A stretch of 64,000 nucleotides of DNA. It comes from Oscillibacter sp. (lineage in GTDB: Bacteria > Bacillota > Clostridia > Oscillospirales > Oscillospiraceae). Shown piece by piece: positions 2,510 through 59,110 of the stretch. The translations under genes were made by a program, and so were the position numbers. The notes beneath the pieces were generated by a model. The model searched no databases, had not been told where the DNA came from, and saw only the letters and a program-made list of their open reading frames with translations. Every line of letters begins with the position of its first letter. Position 1 is the first letter of the stretch. The stretch spans positions 1,912 through 65,911 of the forward strand of contig JAFUGI010000078.1 of assembly GCA_017469475.1 (NCBI GenBank), in the 5' to 3' direction.

Positions 2510-3429
2510 GCTTTGTATCCAATCTGCTGCTGGCCACCGTCCGCATGGCGGTGCCCCTGCTCTTCATCGCCCTGGCGGAGCTGTACTCCGAGCGGGCCGG
2601 CATGGTGAACATCGGCCTGGAGGGCCTTGCCGCCATCGGGTCCCTGGTGGGCTTTCTCGTGTGCTTCATCTCCGGAAGCACGTGGCTGGGCATTTTGTGC
2701 GGCGCCCTGGCGGGCATCGCCGTGAACATGATCTACGCCGTCGCCACCGTCTCCCTCTGCGCGGACCACACGGTGTACGGCATGGCCATGAACATCTTCG
2801 CCCCGGCCCTGGCCTCCTTTATCTACCGGGTCTACTTCGGCGCCGGCAGCGACCTGAGCCAGATCGAGCTGATGCGGGGCATCGGCCTGCCCGTGCTCAA
2901 GGACATCCCCTTCCTGGGCGACCTGCTCTTCAACCAGACGCCCATGGTGTACATTGCCTTTGCCCTGGTGGCCTTCACGGTGGTCTTCTTCAACAAGACC
3001 CGGGCGGGACTGAACTACAAGTCCGTGGGCGAGCACCCCAAGGCCGCGGCCACTCTGGGTATCGACGTGATCCGGGTGAAGTACCTGGCCTGCGTGATCT
3101 GCGGTGCCCTGGCGGGCATCGGCGGGGCCTATCTCACCACCTGCTATTCCAACACCTATTCCGAGGGCACGGTGGCCGGCCGGGGCTTCATCGCCCTGGC
3201 GGCGGTGATCTTCGGCCGGTGGAGCGGCGGCGGCGTGCTGCTGGCGTGCCTGTTCTTCGGCTTTTGCGACGCGCTGCAGATCCGTCTGCAGGTGGCCTCC
3301 TTCGGCCTTCCCTACCAGTTCTTCCAGATGATCCCGTACCTTGCCACCATCGTGGTGCTGGCCGCCATCGGTGCAAAGAAGGCCGGTCCCAAGGCCAGCG
3401 GCAAGCCCTACCGCCGGGAGGAGCGGTGA
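2506..3429 (+). CDS. ABC transporter permease, second subunit
   Basis: ATGA overlap with previous stop; SERAGMVNIGLEG and GRGFIALAAVIFGRW motifs. True start MSFVSN lies inside the ORF-track 1660..3429 frame. Confidence 0.9.
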   Translation: MSFVSNLLLATVRMAVPLLFIALAELYSERAGMVNIGLEGLAAIGSLVGFLVCFISGSTWLGILCGALAGIAVNMIYAVATVSLCADHTVYGMAMNIFAPALASFIYRVYFGAGSDLSQIELMRGIGLPVLKDIPFLGDLLFNQTPMVYIAFALVAFTVVFFNKTRAGLNYKSVGEHPKAAATLGIDVIRVKYLACVICGALAGIGGAYLTTCYSNTYSEGTVAGRGFIALAAVIFGRWSGGGVLLACLFFGFCDALQIRLQVASFGLPYQFFQMIPYLATIVVLAAIGAKKAGPKASGKPYRREER

Positions 3430-3566
3430 GTTTCCACGGCGCCTCCGGCCCCATGGGGCCCCAAGGGGCGATCCCGCGGTGAGCGCCGCGGGCACAGACC
3501 AGATCCAATTCCGCCTGCGGCGATCGCAGGCGGCTGATGGATATATGAAAAAAGGAGGATCTCAAG

Positions 3567-5986: not shown

Positions 5987-6487
5987 ATGCTGAAGGCTTA
6001 CTCTAAATTTCTGGACGGGATCGAGAAGCTCATCCGGGCGCTGCTCTTTTTGACAGTGGCCGTGATGGTGGTGGTGATGGTATATCAGGTCATCCTGCGC
6101 TACATCTTCTCGGCCTCCAACTCCTGGAGCGAGGAGCTTTGCCGCTACCTCTTCATCTACAGCGTGATGTTCGGCGCGGCCATCGCCGTGCGCCGCAACA
6201 GCCACCTGCAGATCGACGTGGTGACCGGGCTTCTCAGCGAGCGGATGAAAAAGATCATCACCATCATTGCGACCGCCGCCGGCATCGTGTTTTTGGGGTT
6301 CCTCTTCGCCTACTCCATCACCCTCTGCCAAACGGCCACCCGCACCATGTCGGCGGGCCTTCCGGGTGTCAACATGGCCATGGCCTACGCGGCTATGCCC
6401 ATCGGCATCGTGCTGATGGTGCTTTGCAGCATCGAGGTCATCATCCGCTGCATCGAAGAGCTGCGCGGCAGCGGAAAGGGGGAGTGA
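5987..6487 (+). CDS. dctQ: TRAP transporter small permease
   Basis: 4 TM; RY..WSEEL.RY and HL.ID motifs; operon position. Confidence 0.92.
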   Translation: MLKAYSKFLDGIEKLIRALLFLTVAVMVVVMVYQVILRYIFSASNSWSEELCRYLFIYSVMFGAAIAVRRNSHLQIDVVTGLLSERMKKIITIIATAAGIVFLGFLFAYSITLCQTATRTMSAGLPGVNMAMAYAAMPIGIVLMVLCSIEVIIRCIEELRGSGKGE

Positions 6488-6491
6488 GGAT

Positions 6492-7769
6492 ATGAACGTC
6501 GGCGTGCTTTTGATCCTGCTCCTGCTGGTGCTGGCCTTTGTGGGCCTTCCCATTTACATCGCCCTGGGCATCGCTACGCTGGTGACGCTAAACATGGCGG
6601 GCCTTCCCGCCATCGTGCTGCCCCAGAAGTTTTTTGCGGGCATGAATTCCAGTTCGCTTCTGGCCATCCCGTTCTTCATTCTGGCGGGCAACATCATGTC
6701 CCGCAGCATCACGGGCAAGCTTATCGAGATCTGCAACGCCTTCATCGGCCACATCAAGGGAAGCCTGGGCGTTGTGACGGTGGTGGCCTCCGCCCTGTTC
6801 GGCGCCATCTCCGGCTCCGGCGTGGCCACGGCCTCCGCCATCGGCGGCATCACCATCCCCGCCATGAAGGACGAGGGCTACCCCGCCGAGTTCGGCGCGG
6901 GCATCGCCTCCATCTCCTCCATTCTGGGGCCCATCATCCCGCCGTCCATCGTGCTGATCGTCTACGCCAGCATCACCAACATCTCCGTTGCGAAGCTCTT
7001 TTTGGGCTCCGCCCTGCCGGGCATGATCCTGGCAGGCTCCCTGGTGATCTATGCCCTGGTCTATGGCAAGCGGCACAACTTCCCCTCCCATGAAAAGACC
7101 ACCGGCCGGCAGAAGGTCCACTCCCTCACCAGCGGCATCTGGGCGCTGCTGATGCCGGTCATCATCCTGGGCGGCATCTTCGGCGGCATCTACACCGCCA
7201 CCGAGGCGGCGGCCATCGCCGTGGCCTATTCCCTCATCATCAGTCTCTTCGTCTATCGGGACATGAAGTTCTCCGAGCTTCCCGGCGTGTTTGCCGAGGG
7301 CGCCATCTCCACGGCGGCCATCATGATGATGGTGGGCCTGTCCAAGGCCTCCAGCTACGTGGTGACCACCTCGGGCCTGCCCCAGAGCCTGGTGGAGACC
7401 TTCAGCTCCCTGACCAACAGCCCCATCGTGATCTTGCTGCTGCTGAACATCGTGTTCCTCATCATCGGCATGCTGATGGAAGCCAACGCGGCGGTGGTGA
7501 TGATGACGCCCATCCTCCTGCCCCTGCTGACGGCCTACAACATCGACCTTTTGCAGTTCGGCATCGTGATGAGCTTCAACCTGTGCATCGGGCTTGTGAC
7601 GCCGCCGGTGGGCCTGTGCCTGCTGATCTGCAACCAGATCGCCAACACCAGCCTTGCCAAAGCCCTCAAGGCCATGATGCCCATGCTGCTCATCTCTATC
7701 ATCGTGCTCTTCCTCATCACCTATGTCTCGCCGCTGACCACGCTGCTGCCTGCGCTGCTGCGAGGATAA
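6492..7769 (+). CDS. dctM: TRAP transporter large permease
   Basis: LLAIPFFILAG, FGAISGS, IIPPS, TPPVG motifs. Confidence 0.94.
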   Translation: MNVGVLLILLLLVLAFVGLPIYIALGIATLVTLNMAGLPAIVLPQKFFAGMNSSSLLAIPFFILAGNIMSRSITGKLIEICNAFIGHIKGSLGVVTVVASALFGAISGSGVATASAIGGITIPAMKDEGYPAEFGAGIASISSILGPIIPPSIVLIVYASITNISVAKLFLGSALPGMILAGSLVIYALVYGKRHNFPSHEKTTGRQKVHSLTSGIWALLMPVIILGGIFGGIYTATEAAAIAVAYSLIISLFVYRDMKFSELPGVFAEGAISTAAIMMMVGLSKASSYVVTTSGLPQSLVETFSSLTNSPIVILLLLNIVFLIIGMLMEANAAVVMMTPILLPLLTAYNIDLLQFGIVMSFNLCIGLVTPPVGLCLLICNQIANTSLAKALKAMMPMLLISIIVLFLITYVSPLTTLLPALLRG

Positions 7770-53377: not shown

Positions 53378-54400
53378 ATGGCGATCCCTATTGGTATCAA
53401 CGGCTTTGGCCGCATCGGCCGGGTGGCGCTCCGCGTGATGGTGGAGCGGGGCAGCAGCAGCTACCACATCTGCGGCATCAACCTGCGCAACGCGGACCTG
53501 GACTATATGGTCTACCAGGTGAAGTACGACTCCGTGTTCCGCACCTTCCAGGGCAGCGTGGACCGGGACGACCGGCACCTCATCATCAACGGCAAGAAGA
53601 TCCGCATCTACAGTGAGAACGACGCCGCCCTCATCCCCTGGGACGACTGCGGCGCGGAGTACATCATCGAGTCCACCGGCGCCTTCAACACCACGGAAAA
53701 GGCGTCGGCCCACCTGAAAAACGGGGCGAGAAAGGTGGTCCTCTCCGCCCCCTCCAAGGACGACTGCACCCCCACCTTCGTCATGGGCGTGAACCACAAG
53801 ACCTATACCCCGGAGATGGACGTGGTGTCCAACGCCTCCTGCACCACCAACTGCCTGGCCCCCATGACCAAGGTCATCCACGACACCTTCGGCATCCAGC
53901 AGGCACTCATGTCCACCATCCACGCCGCCACCGCCAAGCAGAAGGCGGTGGACGCCCGGGCCGGCCGGGACTGGCGGACGGGCCGCAGCGTTCTGGGCAA
54001 CATCATCCCCTCCACCACCGGCGCGGCCAAGGCCGTGGGCGAGGTGATCCCGGAGCTGAAGGGCAAAATGACCGGCATGAGCTTCCGCGTCCCCACCAAC
54101 GACGTGTCCGTGGTGGACCTGACGGCCCGACTGATCCAGCCCGCCAGCTACCACGACGTGTGCGTGGCCATGGAGAACGCGGCCCGCAACAGCATGAAGG
54201 GCATCATCACCTGCACCACGGACCAGGTGGTCTCCTCCGACCTGACGGGCTTCACCGAGACCTGCATTTTCGACGAGACCGCCGGCATCATGCTGGACAA
54301 CGACTTCGTCAAGCTCATCGCCTGGTATGATAACGAATGGGGCTACACCAACAAGCTCCTGGACCTGATCGCCCACATGCACGCGGTGGACCACGCGTAA
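53378..54400 (+). CDS. gap: Type I glyceraldehyde-3-phosphate dehydrogenase, atypical cofactor-binding residues
   Basis: GINGFGRIGR, ASCTTNCLAP catalytic Cys, IIPSTTGAAKAV, WYDNE. Confidence 0.93.
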   Translation: MAIPIGINGFGRIGRVALRVMVERGSSSYHICGINLRNADLDYMVYQVKYDSVFRTFQGSVDRDDRHLIINGKKIRIYSENDAALIPWDDCGAEYIIESTGAFNTTEKASAHLKNGARKVVLSAPSKDDCTPTFVMGVNHKTYTPEMDVVSNASCTTNCLAPMTKVIHDTFGIQQALMSTIHAATAKQKAVDARAGRDWRTGRSVLGNIIPSTTGAAKAVGEVIPELKGKMTGMSFRVPTNDVSVVDLTARLIQPASYHDVCVAMENAARNSMKGIITCTTDQVVSSDLTGFTETCIFDETAGIMLDNDFVKLIAWYDNEWGYTNKLLDLIAHMHAVDHA

Positions 54401-54543
54401 AAGGGCGCCGGCCCCCGCCGGGCACGGAGAGGGACCATCCCCGCCGGCACAAAAGGCGATGCGGCACGCCGTAAGCGTTCGCCTTTACCCGCCCCGCAAT
54501 AAAAAACAGCCAACGCCCCTCTTCCTCATCGGAAGAGGGGCGC

Positions 54544-54747
54544 TCATTCGTCCTCGATGTACTCCATGATGTCCCCCACCTGACAGTGGAGGATCCTGCA
54601 AAACATCTCAATGGTATGGGTGCTGACGCTCTCATTGCGCTTGAGCCGGGTGATCTGCCCGGGGCTCACGTGATACTGCTTGATGAGGGCGTACTGGCTC
54701 ACGCCCCGCTCCTTCATGACCTCCCACAGCCGGCGATACGAAATCAT
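54544..54747 (-). CDS. Small XRE/Cro-like HTH regulator (67 aa)
   Basis: MISY..LW..M....S.Y.L, V...TI...C..L.C...DI.EY. Confidence 0.88.
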   Translation of the reverse strand: MISYRRLWEVMKERGVSQYALIKQYHVSPGQITRLKRNESVSTHTIEMFCRILHCQVGDIMEYIEDE

Positions 54748-54769
54748 CCATCCAAGCCTCGCTTTCTAC

Positions 54770-54824
54770 TTGCATGGTAACCGGAAACGGTATATACTGC
54801 ATATTAACCAATATCGGTTAATAT
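54770..54824 (+). promoter_or_regulatory. Sigma70 promoter plus 9-6-9 inverted repeat operator
   Basis: TTGCAT-17-TATACT (54770-54798); ATATTAACC-AATATC-GGTTAATAT (54801-54824). Confidence 0.7.
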
Positions 54825-54912
54825 CGAACATTCGGAAGGCAGCTGCGGCCGCGAGACCTGTTTGATGCCTGCCGGGAGAAGCATTTTGGTGCAAGGAACG
54901 GAGGCGCAGATC

Positions 54913-55530
54913 ATGGGCGGGATCGGCAGAATTGCGGACATGCTGATGTGCCTTCTGTGGGTCACGACCTATGCGCTGGTCCTGGCGGCCACGCTGAAGG
55001 ACAAGTACCCCGCCATCTCTCCCATCACCCAGGCCATCATCGCGCCCTTCGAATTTGCCGTGACAGCCTCCTTCCTGCAGGATTTTTCCCTGCACTATGT
55101 GTCCGCCGCCTATCTCTGCTGGTCCCTGCTGGAGATCGGGACCATCGCCCTGTTCCTTCAACGGCAGTATATCCGGCCGAGGCTTGCCGGGCCGTATCTC
55201 GCCATCCTCTTCCTGCTCACCTGCCTGATGGCTTATGTCATCCGCCAACCCAGGGGGACGATCGTTTTCTCCTATTTGAATACGATCCTGGGCACGGTCT
55301 TCTGGTATGGGCATGTCCGTCGGCGGGACTATCCCGTTACGGTCCTGCATCTGTGCTTCTTTGTCACCAAATACTGTGCCGATGTTCTGGGCGTCATCAC
55401 ATATTTTCGCCAGCACGGGCCCTTTGTCAGCGCGATGAGCGTCTTGCTCCCGTTTCTGGATTCCCTCTTTATCCTGACCTGGTATGCCCGGCATCAGGAG
55501 AGGCAAACGGACCGCTCCGGGCGCCCATGA
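54913..55530 (+). CDS. Multi-TM membrane protein, putative divergent PaxB/Pyr4-like terpene cyclase homolog
   Basis: GGAGG RBS; WxxxY, KDK, FEF, WxxLE, N, K and late D motifs in the order seen in PaxB-like proteins (by eye). Confidence 0.5.
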   Translation: MGGIGRIADMLMCLLWVTTYALVLAATLKDKYPAISPITQAIIAPFEFAVTASFLQDFSLHYVSAAYLCWSLLEIGTIALFLQRQYIRPRLAGPYLAILFLLTCLMAYVIRQPRGTIVFSYLNTILGTVFWYGHVRRRDYPVTVLHLCFFVTKYCADVLGVITYFRQHGPFVSAMSVLLPFLDSLFILTWYARHQERQTDRSGRP

Positions 55531-55714
55531 CCCACTCCGGCGGCCTTCGCCGCCTGTGGGTCCTCTTTTTTGCCTTTACCCGGAGGAGACCCACAAATCT
55601 TTGGGTTTCCTCTGCTTGTTCATAATTTGTTCATGATTACAGCAGGGGTTTGGAGTATGGTGTAGGAAGAGATATTATGTAACCATGGATCGGACACAAT
55701 GGGAGGAACGGACA

Positions 55715-58700
55715 ATGAAACGATTCTGGACAAAACGGCTTCCGGCGGCTCTGCTGGCCCTGCTGATGACCGTGTGCCTGGCCCCTGCCGCTCTGGCGGA
55801 CGAGCCCGGCGAGGGCCACACCCACACATTTTCCAAGGAGTGGACCAAGAACTCCACGGCCCACTGGCACGAGTGCTCCTGCGGTGAGCGGGCGGACGAG
55901 GAGGCCCACGACTTCGTGGTAGACGCCGCCAAGAGCACCGCCCCCACCTGCTACCAGAGCGGCACCACGGTGGAGCGCTGCTCCGTGTGCGGCTATGAGC
56001 GGACCATCACCTCCGCCCCCACCGGCGACCACGACTTCGATGAGAGCCGCTGGGCCGCGGACGACGACTACCACTGGCACGAGTGCACCACCAAGGGCTG
56101 CACCGCCGCCTCCGCCAAGGAAAGGCACGAGGCCGACGGCGAGGGCAAGGTCACAGACCCCACCTGCACCGAGGACGGCTACATCACCTACACCTGCGCC
56201 GTGTGCGGCAAGACCTATAAGCGCGCCGGCACCAAGGCCCTGGGCCACAACTTTGTCAACGGCAAGTGCACCCGCTGCGGTGTGAAGGAGTCCACCTCCA
56301 CCACCGGGAAGAACTTCTCCCTGGACAATGTGACGGTCTCCAAGAGCGTGAGCGTGGGCTCCAGCATCCGCACCAAGATCAACAGCTACTTCACCAAGAC
56401 CAACTTCTCCACTGTCACCTTCGGCGACCCCACCGGCACCAGCTACGGCACCCTCTACGCCGACAGCGACAAAAGCGCCCTCAAGTCCCGGGAGTACACC
56501 TATTCCAACTCCGGCGGCTGGCCGGTGAAGGACCTGTACTTCGTGGCCAAGAGCAAGGCCGGCACCTACAAGATCCCCTACACCGCCGAGGACGACAGCG
56601 GCAACGTGGTGGAGGGCACCATCACCATCAAGGTGGTCTCCTCCTCCAGCTCCTCCAGCACCTCCGGCTCCAAGATCACCTACGAGGTCAAGCCCGGCAA
56701 GTCCGTCACCTTCAGCAAGAGCGACTTTGACGACGTGTACAGCGCCAAGCGGGACGACACGCTGCGCTATGTGACCTTCACCGTCAGCTCCATCAGCGGC
56801 GGGTCCTTCACCGTGGACTCCAAGACCCTCTCCCGCAGCACGCTGAACAACTCCGCCTTCTACTACAGCAAGTCCAGATACGGCGACTACGCCCTGGCGG
56901 ACCTGACCTTCGAGGCGGACAGCGACTTTGATTCCAGCCTCACCCTGACCTACTATGCCTACGGCGAGGACGAGGACGACTATGTGAAGGGGAGCGTGGT
57001 CATCAAGTCCACCGGCTCCAGCTCCTCTGGCTCCTCCGGCTCTTCCAGCTCCTCCGGCACCATCTCCTACTCCGTGAAGGCGGGCAGCTCGGTGGCCTTC
57101 AAGAAGAGCGACTTCAAGACCGCTTACGACAAAAAGCTCTCCGGCACCGTCCGGTACGTGACCTTTGAGACCTCCTCCACCCTCAGCGCCAGCGAGGGCA
57201 CCCTCTACAACGACTACAACGGCAGCGAAGAGAAATCCTTCGCCCGGTCCAGCCTGAGCCGGTACAACTTCTACTACTCCTCCTCTTCCTACGGCGACTA
57301 CGCCCTGGAGGATCTGAGCTTCGTGGCGCCCAAGGGGGCCTCCGCCCACACGGTGAAGCTGACCTACACCGTGTATGACTCCCGGGACGACTCCGTCACC
57401 GGCACGGTGGAGATCAAGGTCACCGGCTCCGGCACCACCTCCTCTTCCTCCGACACGCTGACCTACAAGGTCCAGCCCGGCAAGGAGGTCACCTTCAACC
57501 GCAAGGACTTCAACTCCTATTACCAGGAGGTCTCCGACACCACCAACACCATCAAGTATGTCACCTTCGAGACCTCCGACACCCTGAGCAAGACCTCCTC
57601 CGGCCTGGTGTACTACAACTACGGCTCCTCCGGCGAGGTGTCCTTCAACCGCAACAGCATCGACGACTATAAGTTCTACTACAGCAGCGCCTCCGACGGG
57701 GATTACCCCCTGAGCGGCCTCTCCTTCGTGGCGGGCAGCGGCTTTACCAAGGCCATCACGCTGGACTTCACGGCCTACTACACCACCAGCAAAAAGGCCA
57801 CCGGCAAGCTGGTCATCCAGCCCGACGGCACCGCGGCCACCACGCCCACCACCACCGTCACCTCCTCCGCCGTGGCCGACCTGGTGTACCAGACGGCCTA
57901 CGCCGACACTGTGCGCATCAATGCCGACGAGCTGGCCCGCTTCTTCCGCAGGCAGATCTCCGGCGGACGGCTCCAGTACGTCCGGCTGGACGGCGTGCCC
58001 GCCTCCGGCAGCCTCTACTACAACTATTACGGCACCAGCCGCTACGGCTCCACCACCCGCAAGCAGCTCACCGCCTCCAACTGCGCGGCGCAGAACTTCT
58101 ATTTCAGCCCCACCTCCACCAGCCAGTACTCTCTGGCGGAGCTGGCGTTCGTGCCCACCAGCGGCGTCAACACCTGCGTGACCATTCCCTTCACCGCCGT
58201 GGGCGCCACCGCCAGCCAAACGGTCAAGGGCACCATCCTCATCAGCGCTACCAAGGCCAAGGTAGCGGACGTGTACGGCGTGACCCCCAAGGGCACCGCC
58301 GTGACCCTGCCCGCCTCCGCCATCGTCTCCGCCGTCACCACCGCCACCGGCTCCGCCCCTGCGGGCATCCAGCTGGTGAAGCTGCCCAAGACCTCCGTGG
58401 GCACGGTGTACGTGGGCTCCGGCACCTCCACCAAGGCCGTCACCGGCAAGACCTACGGCTACAACACCGGCGACCAGCAGATGGGCCAGCTGCGCTTCGT
58501 GCCCGCCTCCGGCCACACCGGTGCCGTGGAGATCCCCTATGCCGCCGTGGACAGCCGGGGCAACCTCATGGCGGCGGGCGTGTTCTCCCTGGGCGTCGTG
58601 AGCAGCGTGAAGAAATTCTCTGACATCAACTCCTCCACCTGGTGCTACAAGTACGTCACCGAGCTGGCGGACGCCGGCGTCATCGGCGGCTACAGCGACG

Positions 58701-59110
58701 GGTCCTACCGCACCAACAACGCCGTGACCTACGGCGCGGCACTGAAGCTGGTGATGCTGGCCGCCTGGTATCCCGAGCAGAAGCCCACCGGGGCCAACGT
58801 GTTCAGCGGCTACCTGGATAAGGCCCGGTCCGAGGGCATCATCACCCGGGCCAACGTGGACCTGACCAAGCCCATCACCCGTTTGCAGGTGGCCCAGCTG
58901 GCCGCCGGGGCCATGAAGCTGGATACCTCCAACCTCTCCAGCGTCAAGCCCTTCACCGACACCACCGACGTGTACGTGCAGGCCCTGAACGCCGCCGGCG
59001 TCATCAACGGCTACTTTGCCAATGGCACCAGCACCTATAAGCCCGGCAACACCCTGACCCGGGGTCAGGTGGCCGCCATCGTGTGGCGGATGCGCAACTA
59101 CGAAAAGTAA
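55715..59110 (+). CDS. Large secreted S-layer homology (SLH) surface protein
   Basis: Signal peptide ALA-DE; Cys/His-rich N-terminal repeats; tandem ~130-aa repeats; C-terminal FSD...W and FTD..D.YV.AL..AGVI.GY....Y.P...LTRGQ. Confidence 0.9.
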   Translation: MKRFWTKRLPAALLALLMTVCLAPAALADEPGEGHTHTFSKEWTKNSTAHWHECSCGERADEEAHDFVVDAAKSTAPTCYQSGTTVERCSVCGYERTITSAPTGDHDFDESRWAADDDYHWHECTTKGCTAASAKERHEADGEGKVTDPTCTEDGYITYTCAVCGKTYKRAGTKALGHNFVNGKCTRCGVKESTSTTGKNFSLDNVTVSKSVSVGSSIRTKINSYFTKTNFSTVTFGDPTGTSYGTLYADSDKSALKSREYTYSNSGGWPVKDLYFVAKSKAGTYKIPYTAEDDSGNVVEGTITIKVVSSSSSSSTSGSKITYEVKPGKSVTFSKSDFDDVYSAKRDDTLRYVTFTVSSISGGSFTVDSKTLSRSTLNNSAFYYSKSRYGDYALADLTFEADSDFDSSLTLTYYAYGEDEDDYVKGSVVIKSTGSSSSGSSGSSSSSGTISYSVKAGSSVAFKKSDFKTAYDKKLSGTVRYVTFETSSTLSASEGTLYNDYNGSEEKSFARSSLSRYNFYYSSSSYGDYALEDLSFVAPKGASAHTVKLTYTVYDSRDDSVTGTVEIKVTGSGTTSSSSDTLTYKVQPGKEVTFNRKDFNSYYQEVSDTTNTIKYVTFETSDTLSKTSSGLVYYNYGSSGEVSFNRNSIDDYKFYYSSASDGDYPLSGLSFVAGSGFTKAITLDFTAYYTTSKKATGKLVIQPDGTAATTPTTTVTSSAVADLVYQTAYADTVRINADELARFFRRQISGGRLQYVRLDGVPASGSLYYNYYGTSRYGSTTRKQLTASNCAAQNFYFSPTSTSQYSLAELAFVPTSGVNTCVTIPFTAVGATASQTVKGTILISATKAKVADVYGVTPKGTAVTLPASAIVSAVTTATGSAPAGIQLVKLPKTSVGTVYVGSGTSTKAVTGKTYGYNTGDQQMGQLRFVPASGHTGAVEIPYAAVDSRGNLMAAGVFSLGVVSSVKKFSDINSSTWCYKYVTELADAGVIGGYSDGSYRTNNAVTYGAALKLVMLAAWYPEQKPTGANVFSGYLDKARSEGIITRANVDLTKPITRLQVAQLAAGAMKLDTSNLSSVKPFTDTTDVYVQALNAAGVINGYFANGTSTYKPGNTLTRGQVAAIVWRMRNYEK

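Follow-up and report, generated by a model that had tools for sequence, protein, structure and literature searches.

The stretch of DNA analyzed here, 64,000 nucleotides of an Oscillibacter sp. genome (contig JAFUGI010000078.1, positions 1,912 to 65,911; hereafter the window), encodes a 205-residue membrane protein, P0001, which, judging from sequence comparisons, is very probably a true member of the Pyr4/PaxB superfamily of cyclases, though a very remote one. As a whole, the observations are best explained by a divergent Pyr4/PaxB enzyme that would act on envelope lipids and would have been captured as cargo of an XRE regulatory module, an explanation on which we see the balance as even. P0001 does not belong to a terpenoid natural-product pathway. 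The gene and its ribosome-binding site (RBS) are located as follows:

54913 to 55530, plus strand: gene for P0001, 205 amino acids (aa), seven transmembrane (TM) helices (translation, Pfam, AlphaFold2, alignments)
54900 to 54904, plus strand: GGAGG ribosome-binding site, 8 nucleotides before the ATG at 54913 (sequence)

We take the ATG at 54913 to be the real start because of this upstream GGAGG and because homologues begin at the aligned methionine; the alternative TTG at 54862 (222 aa) is therefore an unlikely start. An initial annotation, made from the window sequence alone, had described a multi-TM protein of 205 residues with motifs in the order of the Pyr4-type cyclases. All listed motifs are present in the translation (WVTTY at residues 16-20, KDK at 29-31, PFEF at 45-48, WSLLE at 70-74, YLNT at 121-124, TKY at 152-154 and FLDSL at 181-185), and seven helices are predicted.

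Relationship of P0001 to the Pyr4/PaxB cyclases

Searched on its own, P0001 has a single Pfam match, to PF25129 (Pyr4-like transmembrane terpene cyclases), with an E-value of 0.006 and 16.7 bits. No match was found in NCBIfam, PADLOC or PHROGs, which argues against a known defense, phage or named bacterial family. To extend the comparison, each of 51 full-length family members (alignment A2) was scanned against Pfam. Eleven of them match PF25129, in a shared register that places protein residue ~9 on profile position ~21, and the best score, 29.5 bits for P0084, lies above the gathering cut-off; no other Pfam family was matched by more than 4 of the 51 members. These matches are not circular, since the seed sequences of PF25129 are all fungal (Supplementary Information of PMC13307353).

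A PF25129 search of 400 genomes of the same class yielded L022 (105 bits) and L023 (80 bits), both bona fide and full-length, and a third member, L007 (33 bits), whose gene is truncated where contig C96 of the window genome ends. In an hhalign comparison of profiles, A2 aligned with L022, L023 and L007 at a probability of 97.3% (E-value 1.7e-11) over 191 columns, which is essentially full length, and with L022 and L023 only at 96.9%. Controls with a reversed template and with an unrelated membrane family (Lgt paralogues) gave 0.1% and 0.6%, respectively. Two sequences, L021 and P0084, bridge the groups in their motifs, having N-F-(S/A)-W-E as in the true members and T-K-L-(I/L)-G-D as in the P0001 family. 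Homology is supported by the profile-profile comparison, by these intermediate sequences and by the coincident position of the catalytic glutamate.

For the placing of residues, we used a provisional fungal Pyr4-type sequence, which we treat as a lead. Its match to PF25129 reaches 285 bits and spans positions 2-227 of 227 in the profile, and we therefore regard it as an authentic family sequence. Fungal residue n falls on profile position n-4, hence Glu63 on position 59, and residues 9-107 of P0001 correspond to profile positions 21-120; in this register, Glu47 of P0001 and Glu63 of Pyr4 both occupy position 59. A MAFFT alignment of the fungal sequence, L022, L023, L021, P0084 and P0001 contains four invariant columns, W32, Y36, E63 and W84 of Pyr4, equivalent to W16, Y20, E47 and W70 of P0001. 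Pyr4 D218 stands opposite D183 of P0001 in the same alignment, as does the Asp of L022 and L023. Glu63 and Asp218 are the residues reported to be essential in the original Pyr4 mutagenesis. Across the family, the conserved glutamate has been proposed to act as the catalytic acid, a place that Asp59 takes in AdrI (Supplementary Information of PMC13307353).

Conservation within A2 (n = 51) is highest for E47 and D157 (50 sequences each), followed by W16 and Y164 (48 each), K153 (45), D183 (38, the rest having N, H or Q) and E74 (32, plus 6 with Asp). D157 is specific to the subfamily, as true PF25129 members carry Ser or Thr in its place. The conserved residues of P0001 that lie at mid-membrane are W16, Y20, E47, E74, N123, K153, D157, Y164 and D183. 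As far as the alignments can tell, the general-acid glutamate of helix 2 (E47) is intact in P0001, and we consider it slightly more probable than the opposite that P0001 is an enzyme using E47 as a general acid. P0001 keeps the buried helix-2 glutamate E47 (E63 of Pyr4), which serves as general acid in the characterized cyclases, and the helix-7 aspartate D183 (D218), and adds a family-specific Lys-x3-Asp pair on helix 6 (K153 and D157).

The predicted structure agrees with the family in helix number. AlphaFold2, run on a 10-sequence alignment (A1), gave a seven-helix model with the conserved polar residues in the middle of the helices (predicted local distance difference test, pLDDT, 91.2; predicted template modeling score, pTM, 0.86), and all known family members have seven helices (Supplementary Information of PMC13307353). 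Counting Lys and Arg on the loops of the model, the positive-inside rule predicts an N-terminus outside and a C-terminus inside. A single-sequence AlphaFold model of L022 was too poor for fold comparison (pLDDT 52) and has seven helices at matching positions. Sequence searches of the PDB with profiles A1, A2 and A3 gave no match at E-values up to 10, so that there is no solved relative to anchor the active site. A Foldseek search of the PDB with the P0001 model retrieved only seven-helix transporters and receptors (TM-score 0.50-0.60, E-values 0.02-0.3, probability up to 1.00), with SWEET (5ctg), the KDEL receptor (6i6j and 7rxc) and cystinosin (7zk1) at the top.

P0001 could alternatively be a non-catalytic 7-TM protein of the SWEET/PQ-loop/KDEL-receptor type, either a translocator of small molecules or of lipid-linked substrates or a scaffold or receptor subunit, whose buried acids would bind substrate or protons. 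The top matches all have the 3+1+3 arrangement of helices, the predicted topology is that of SWEET, the KDEL receptor and cystinosin, there is a weak echo in K-x-Y-P after helix 1 and R-D-Y-P after helix 5, and the gene of one relative (L051) is directly followed by a MurJ/MatE-type flippase gene. However, with E-values of this size, the matches may reflect a generic seven-helix bundle. The PQ-loop, MtN3 and KDELR families of Pfam were not matched at E-values up to 10, and an internal 3+1+3 repeat was not detected when the N- and C-terminal halves of P0001 were compared (hhalign probability below 2%). Moreover, the sole detectable sequence relatives of P0001 are enzymes, and its best-conserved residue is their catalytic glutamate. 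We regard a non-catalytic function as rather unlikely.

In favor of a canonical meroterpenoid or terpenoid cyclase, with the other pathway genes elsewhere in the genome, there is only the homology, together with the conservation of the catalytic Glu and Asp. The window genome (2.06 Mb, 97% complete) lacks a UbiA-type prenyltransferase and has a single polyprenyl synthase. No prenyltransferase, polyprenyl synthase or epoxidase gene lies near P0001, as the initial annotation had stated for prenyltransferases and epoxidases, and none was found in 13 distinct loci of relatives. The hosts are gut anaerobes, whereas the epoxidation that feeds the known Pyr4-type cyclases needs O2. The lack of terpene genes is common among bacterial homologues: a published survey of 1107 found 264 with terpene neighbors and 843 without, and counted 4 from Bacillota (PMC13307353). 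A cyclase with a dispersed pathway is extremely improbable in our view, and it is very improbable that P0001 is a classical terpenoid cyclase.

The PF25129 members of Clostridia themselves occur in diverse settings. L007 (C96:1-264, minus strand) is a second, different Pyr4-like transmembrane terpene cyclase gene in the window genome, ended by the contig edge, and follows a gene for a protein of 358 aa that is acidic and of low complexity. The 33 bits mentioned above, which exceed the gathering cut-off, come from just the 88 N-terminal residues of L007. The A2 profile fails to detect L007, which indicates a different branch. L023 (genome G420, positions 1-2788) lies between two TetR genes and adjoins a gene of the MCRA (oleate hydratase) family, a context that, at the level of gene content, links a Pyr4-like protein to unsaturated fatty-acid chemistry. 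Two small open reading frames (ORFs), of 106 and 97 aa, adjoin L022 (genome G345, region 2722-3443), with an ABC ATPase gene next to them. The small ORFs have leader-like motifs of the Gly-Gly type and C-x2-C...H-x3-H ends, and may be peptide precursors.

Gene neighborhoods of the relatives

The gene neighborhoods provide good evidence, at the level of sequence, for a functional partnership of the Pyr4-like gene with a short paralogue of the lipid transferase Lgt. Four loci (L005, L016, L019 and L036) share an arrangement that opens with a gene for a giant protein (>1500 aa) and continues with one or two short Lgt paralogues, then the Pyr4-like gene and then a BspA-type leucine-rich repeat (LRR) protein of ~600 aa; in L005, L019 and L036 a second giant-protein gene closes the cassette. 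The short paralogue in these four loci (PF01790) has ~220 aa and a Cys-rich loop, C-x4-CC-x-GR. In L036 it overlaps the Pyr4-like gene by 4 nucleotides, and in a further locus (L001) the two genes are divergent. The pairing extends to a very distant member, P0077 (25% identity; locus L050), where a short Lgt paralogue follows 19 nucleotides downstream in reversed gene order, has the same Cys-rich loop and is ~25% identical to the others; a giant-protein gene is divergent to this pair. Adjacency in 6 of the 13 loci (L001, L005, L016, L019, L036 and L050), occurrence in both gene orders and parallel divergence are the grounds on which we consider the partnership well evidenced. We found no description of this pairing in the literature searched.

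Since relatives are repeatedly joined to the short Lgt paralogue and stand beside genes for giant and BspA-type surface proteins, P0001 would catalyze a proton-initiated reaction on a membrane lipid or on a lipid-linked envelope intermediate. We hold this role in envelope lipids, or one otherwise linked to Lgt, tentatively and short of an even chance.

Lipoproteins were considered as clients of the pair and rejected, because the neighboring surface proteins, LRR and giant alike, carry signals of the signal-peptidase-I type without a lipobox Cys. Across all cassettes, the short Cys-rich Lgt paralogues have about 220-245 aa and share C-x4-CC-x-G; the giant secreted protein (>1500 aa) has an N-terminal motif, A-W-I-T-L-S..PEV; and the LRR proteins end in a tag-like region composed of TGR-x-SSWG-x-N, a helix and a K/R-rich GYVP(D/E). 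The cassette of gut Clostridia may be an undescribed sorting or lipidation system. Other contexts include an RlmD-like methyltransferase (L014 and L017) and, two genes from the Pyr4-like gene, GtrA plus a family-2 glycosyltransferase (L037).

Probable acquisition and predicted control of the P0001 gene

The family of P0001 is rare and patchily distributed. An HMMER scan of 1.84 billion protein representatives (clustered at 50% identity) retrieved 75 members at E-values up to 0.001. Of 300 genomes of the class searched with the A2 profile, only the window genome and one other were positive. P0001 has no homologue in 24 congeners, not counting the window genome itself, and none in 16 further families of the order. 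Its closest relatives share 36-45% identity with it and stem from metagenomes and metagenome-assembled genomes (42-56% G+C) of ruminants and other gut sources, assigned to Ruminococcaceae, Oscillospiraceae and Lachnospiraceae. A second sample of the same species (L039) has an identical arrangement with 99.5% nucleotide identity and one amino-acid change in 205.

The G+C content of the P0001 gene is 58.6%, with 0.78 at third codon positions (GC3), and that of the XRE gene is 56.9%, compared with a GC3 of 0.93-0.94 in the flanking gap and SLH (surface-layer homology) genes and 64.2% G+C in the whole genome. Absence from the 24 congeners and low GC3 together indicate that the P0001 gene was probably acquired. 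In an empty-site comparison with 11 congeners, only gap itself was conserved; both flanks differ between species, so that neither insertion nor its absence is demonstrable at this site. The gap gene (window 53378-54400; congener loci L025-L035) encodes a protein with 83-91% identity and has unusually poor synteny for a housekeeping gene.

The features around the P0001 gene are:

54512 to 54544, minus strand: terminator-like hairpin, 14-bp stem followed by a T-run, directly after the XRE stop (terminator scan)
54544 to 54747, minus strand: gene for an XRE-type regulator with an HTH_26 domain (PF13443), 67 aa, without a sensor domain (Pfam)
54770 to 54798, plus strand: promoter of the cargo gene, -35 TTGCAT (54770-54775), 17-nucleotide spacer, -10 TATACT (54793-54798) (sequence, conservation)
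54801 to 54824, no strand: candidate operator, perfect 9-6-9 palindrome ATATTAACC-AATATC-GGTTAATAT (sequence, comparison)
54839 to 54899, plus strand: GC-rich leader of ~60 bp between the conserved control region and the RBS of P0001 (control-region alignment A4)
55581 to 55614, plus strand: terminator-like hairpin 3' of the P0001 gene, separating it from the SLH gene (terminator scan)
55685 to 59110: SLH surface-protein gene, 1141 aa, downstream of P0001 (Pfam confirms the SLH domain)

The regulator matches HTH_26 with 68.4 bits (cut-off 22; E-value 6.3e-19), with weaker matches to VanU-type and phage repressor models. Orthologues with 79-80% identity occur in two congeners (G011 and G024), both of which lack a Pyr4-like gene. 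The alignment of the three control regions (A4) shows conservation of the XRE start, the -35 element, the 17-nucleotide spacer, the -10 element, the palindrome core and a GGAAGG RBS. The core, ATTAACC-AATATC-GGTTAA, is unchanged in G011 and G024, where it likewise adjoins the XRE orthologue, and neither the palindrome nor its 9-nucleotide half-site has another occurrence in the window genome. The left arm of the palindrome contains the predicted start site of the cargo promoter; the likely -10 element and spacer of the XRE gene's own promoter, as read from the sequence, overlap the palindrome on the minus strand.

The gene under this control differs from species to species. It encodes a lipoprotein of 222 aa in G024 (L041, positions 717-1695), where the module lies beside pgi, a two-helix protein of 121 aa in G011 (L042, positions 1492-2168), where it lies between LacI and rubrerythrin genes, and the Pyr4-like protein in the window (54544-54912), where it lies beside gap; the pgi, LacI and rubrerythrin identities were read from ORF translations. 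The ~60-bp GC-rich leader is absent from the two congener modules and is likely a junction left by cargo replacement. As the palindrome is kept with the XRE gene across three cargo types, it is best seen as the operator of the regulator and not as specific to the cyclase-like gene. Judging from their joint conservation, XRE, promoter and palindrome form a portable and probably autoregulated control module. In the window species, the P0001 gene would have been captured alone, without the Lgt paralogue, as cargo of this genus-resident module, and an XRE dimer would bind the 24-bp palindrome over the cargo start site and the XRE -10 region and so repress both genes. A toxin-antitoxin reading of the regulator and the membrane protein was rejected, because the genes are divergent and not conserved as a pair, and because other cargo genes are driven by the same XRE.

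Much of what the initial annotation had proposed for this region holds, namely a small HTH (helix-turn-helix) gene divergent to P0001, a perfect 9-6-9 inverted repeat at 54801-54824, codon usage more AT-rich than in the flanks, and, as the conservation of promoter and palindrome with XRE in two congeners suggests, control by the divergent repressor through an operator over the start site. Its "clean" promoter, in contrast, was overstated: the promoter is present and supported by its conservation in two congeners as TTGAAT-17-TATAAT, but it matches the consensus at only 8 of 12 positions and was missed by a consensus scan for that reason. Of its horizontally acquired two-gene islet, only the acquisition of the P0001 gene has been borne out. 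The XRE gene and operator are resident in the genus, where they drive other cargo elsewhere, and this argues for a control module with swapped cargo and not for a co-acquired pair.

The stand-alone gene with a dedicated regulator, in a genome without endogenous prenylation machinery, could also suggest a regulated cyclase-like enzyme that transforms, detoxifies or senses lipophiles of the gut, such as terpenoids, sterols, bile acids or unsaturated fatty acids. The setting of L023, a bona fide PF25129 member of Clostridia between TetR genes and an oleate-hydratase gene, is in line with this. However, the XRE protein has only 67 aa and no ligand-binding domain. In congeners, the genes behind the same XRE-operator module are those for an unrelated lipoprotein and a 2-TM protein, and the regulator therefore says nothing specific on lipids. 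In addition, the recurrent partners in the subfamily are the Lgt paralogue and surface proteins, not efflux, hydratase or TetR genes. We judge this explanation unlikely; action on exogenous terpenoids in particular is possible, and is less favored than envelope-lipid chemistry coupled to the Lgt paralogue.

The other neighbors of P0001 in the window are a MarR-like gene, a small ferredoxin, glyceraldehyde-3-phosphate dehydrogenase (GAPDH, gap) and the SLH surface protein. The MarR-like label was read from the ORF translation, whereas ferredoxin and GAPDH are backed by Pfam matches on the same-species contig L039. The SLH protein has its SLH domain near the C-terminus and a Cys/His-rich N-terminal repeat region, which over 105 aa shares 36% identity with a portion of the L001 giant protein. 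Translation of the SLH protein probably begins at the Met at 55715, after GGGAGG.

Assessment and comparison with known systems

Several observations weigh against an envelope-lipid enzyme of the Pyr4/PaxB type. The 16.7 bits of P0001 are below the PF25129 gathering cut-off of 27 bits, similarity of the single P0001 sequence to the Clostridia PF25129 members is not detectable, and the A2 profile aligns with the single fungal sequence at a probability of only 6% (E-value 0.006), yet in the same register. Because single-sequence comparisons fail in this way, the case for superfamily membership is transitive and made at the level of profiles. In the PDB, the modeled P0001 structure finds its best fold matches among transporters and receptors, not enzymes. 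About half of the relatives' loci have no Lgt paralogue. In the window genome, tblastn with five short Lgt paralogues found none, the only PF01790 protein is a canonical housekeeping Lgt (contig C147), and neither the cassette-type tag nor the giant-protein motif is present. Finally, XRE has no sensor domain that would suggest a signal for derepression. The initial annotation, which had called P0001 a PaxB/Pyr4-like homolog and had named profile and structure searches as a check, was right at the level of remote homology, with 97.3% in hhalign against PF25129 members and a shared Glu position, while P0001 itself stays under the Pfam cut-off.

As the window genome has neither the short Lgt paralogue nor the cassette motifs, the P0001 gene is orphaned from its usual partner, yet intact. 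It could be a functionless passenger, the decaying remnant of an Lgt-paralogue cassette, as the missing partner and other cassette proteins would suggest and as two relatives with frame-disrupted copies illustrate. In those two metagenome-assembled genomes (L018, positions 6001-6641, and L019, positions 6001-6596), a frame change interrupts the Pyr4-like gene, due to either assembly error or gene decay. The P0001 ORF, however, is intact and keeps every near-invariant residue of the family, it has a strong RBS and a conserved promoter, and the gene is kept in the second sample of the same species. Decay is accordingly quite improbable in our estimate.

In a more far-reaching version of the envelope-lipid explanation, which we consider speculative and unlikely, the Pyr4-like protein and the short Cys-rich Lgt paralogue would form an undescribed system for envelope lipid modification or for protein lipidation and sorting. 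It would serve the giant and BspA-type proteins, with the Pyr4-like partner providing proton-initiated chemistry on a lipid donor or on the C-terminal tag. In the window genome, the captured and independently regulated protein, encoded beside an SLH gene, would act with the housekeeping Lgt or on bulk membrane lipid.

Pyr4-type cyclases are known from fungal and actinomycete natural products, and most bacterial homologues lie outside such clusters and have no known role. The P0001 subfamily extends the superfamily below the Pfam threshold and into strictly anaerobic gut Clostridia that are unable to make the classical substrates. A functional handle is offered by the partnership with the Lgt paralogue, kept across members that are only ~25% identical and located beside giant surface-protein genes. 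Modification of envelope lipids or lipidation of surface proteins by the pair, if it occurs, would be a chemistry new to both families. With its exchangeable cargo, the XRE-operator module provides a small example of regulatory modules that are reused for newly acquired genes.

Among known systems, the Pyr4/PaxB cyclases (fungal Pyr4, PaxB, AusL and AdrI; bacterial XiaH, TylF, DmtA1, GroF and ZigF) share with P0001 a length of ~200-240 aa, seven helices and the order of motifs, with W-x3-Y in helix 1, (W/F)-E in helix 2, W-x3-(E/D) in helix 3, a basic residue in helix 6 and Asp in helix 7. P0001 differs in its low identity (17% with the fungal sequence, and 14% with the Clostridia members over the profile alignment), in the extra invariant D157, which replaces Ser/Thr one turn past the helix-6 Lys, and in its setting, with no prenyltransferase, epoxidase or polyprenyl-synthase neighbor and an anaerobic gut Oscillospiraceae host without UbiA. 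Stand-alone bacterial Pyr4-like proteins, which make up about three quarters of the homologues (PMC13307353) and include L022 and L023, are likewise found outside clusters, patchily distributed and often beside a small regulator, but the P0001 subfamily is more diverged, much rarer and has its own recurrent partner in the short Cys-rich Lgt paralogue. SWEET, PQ-loop (cystinosin) and KDEL-receptor proteins resemble P0001 in helix count, length and probably N-out/C-in topology, but not in profile similarity, PQ or MtN3 motifs, or a detectable internal repeat. The regulator resembles small XRE/Cro-type HTH_26 repressors (VanU-like and phage-type) in its single HTH domain, the repeat with 9-bp arms and probable autoregulation; unlike these, the module recurs in three species at different chromosomal places and with different envelope-protein cargo.

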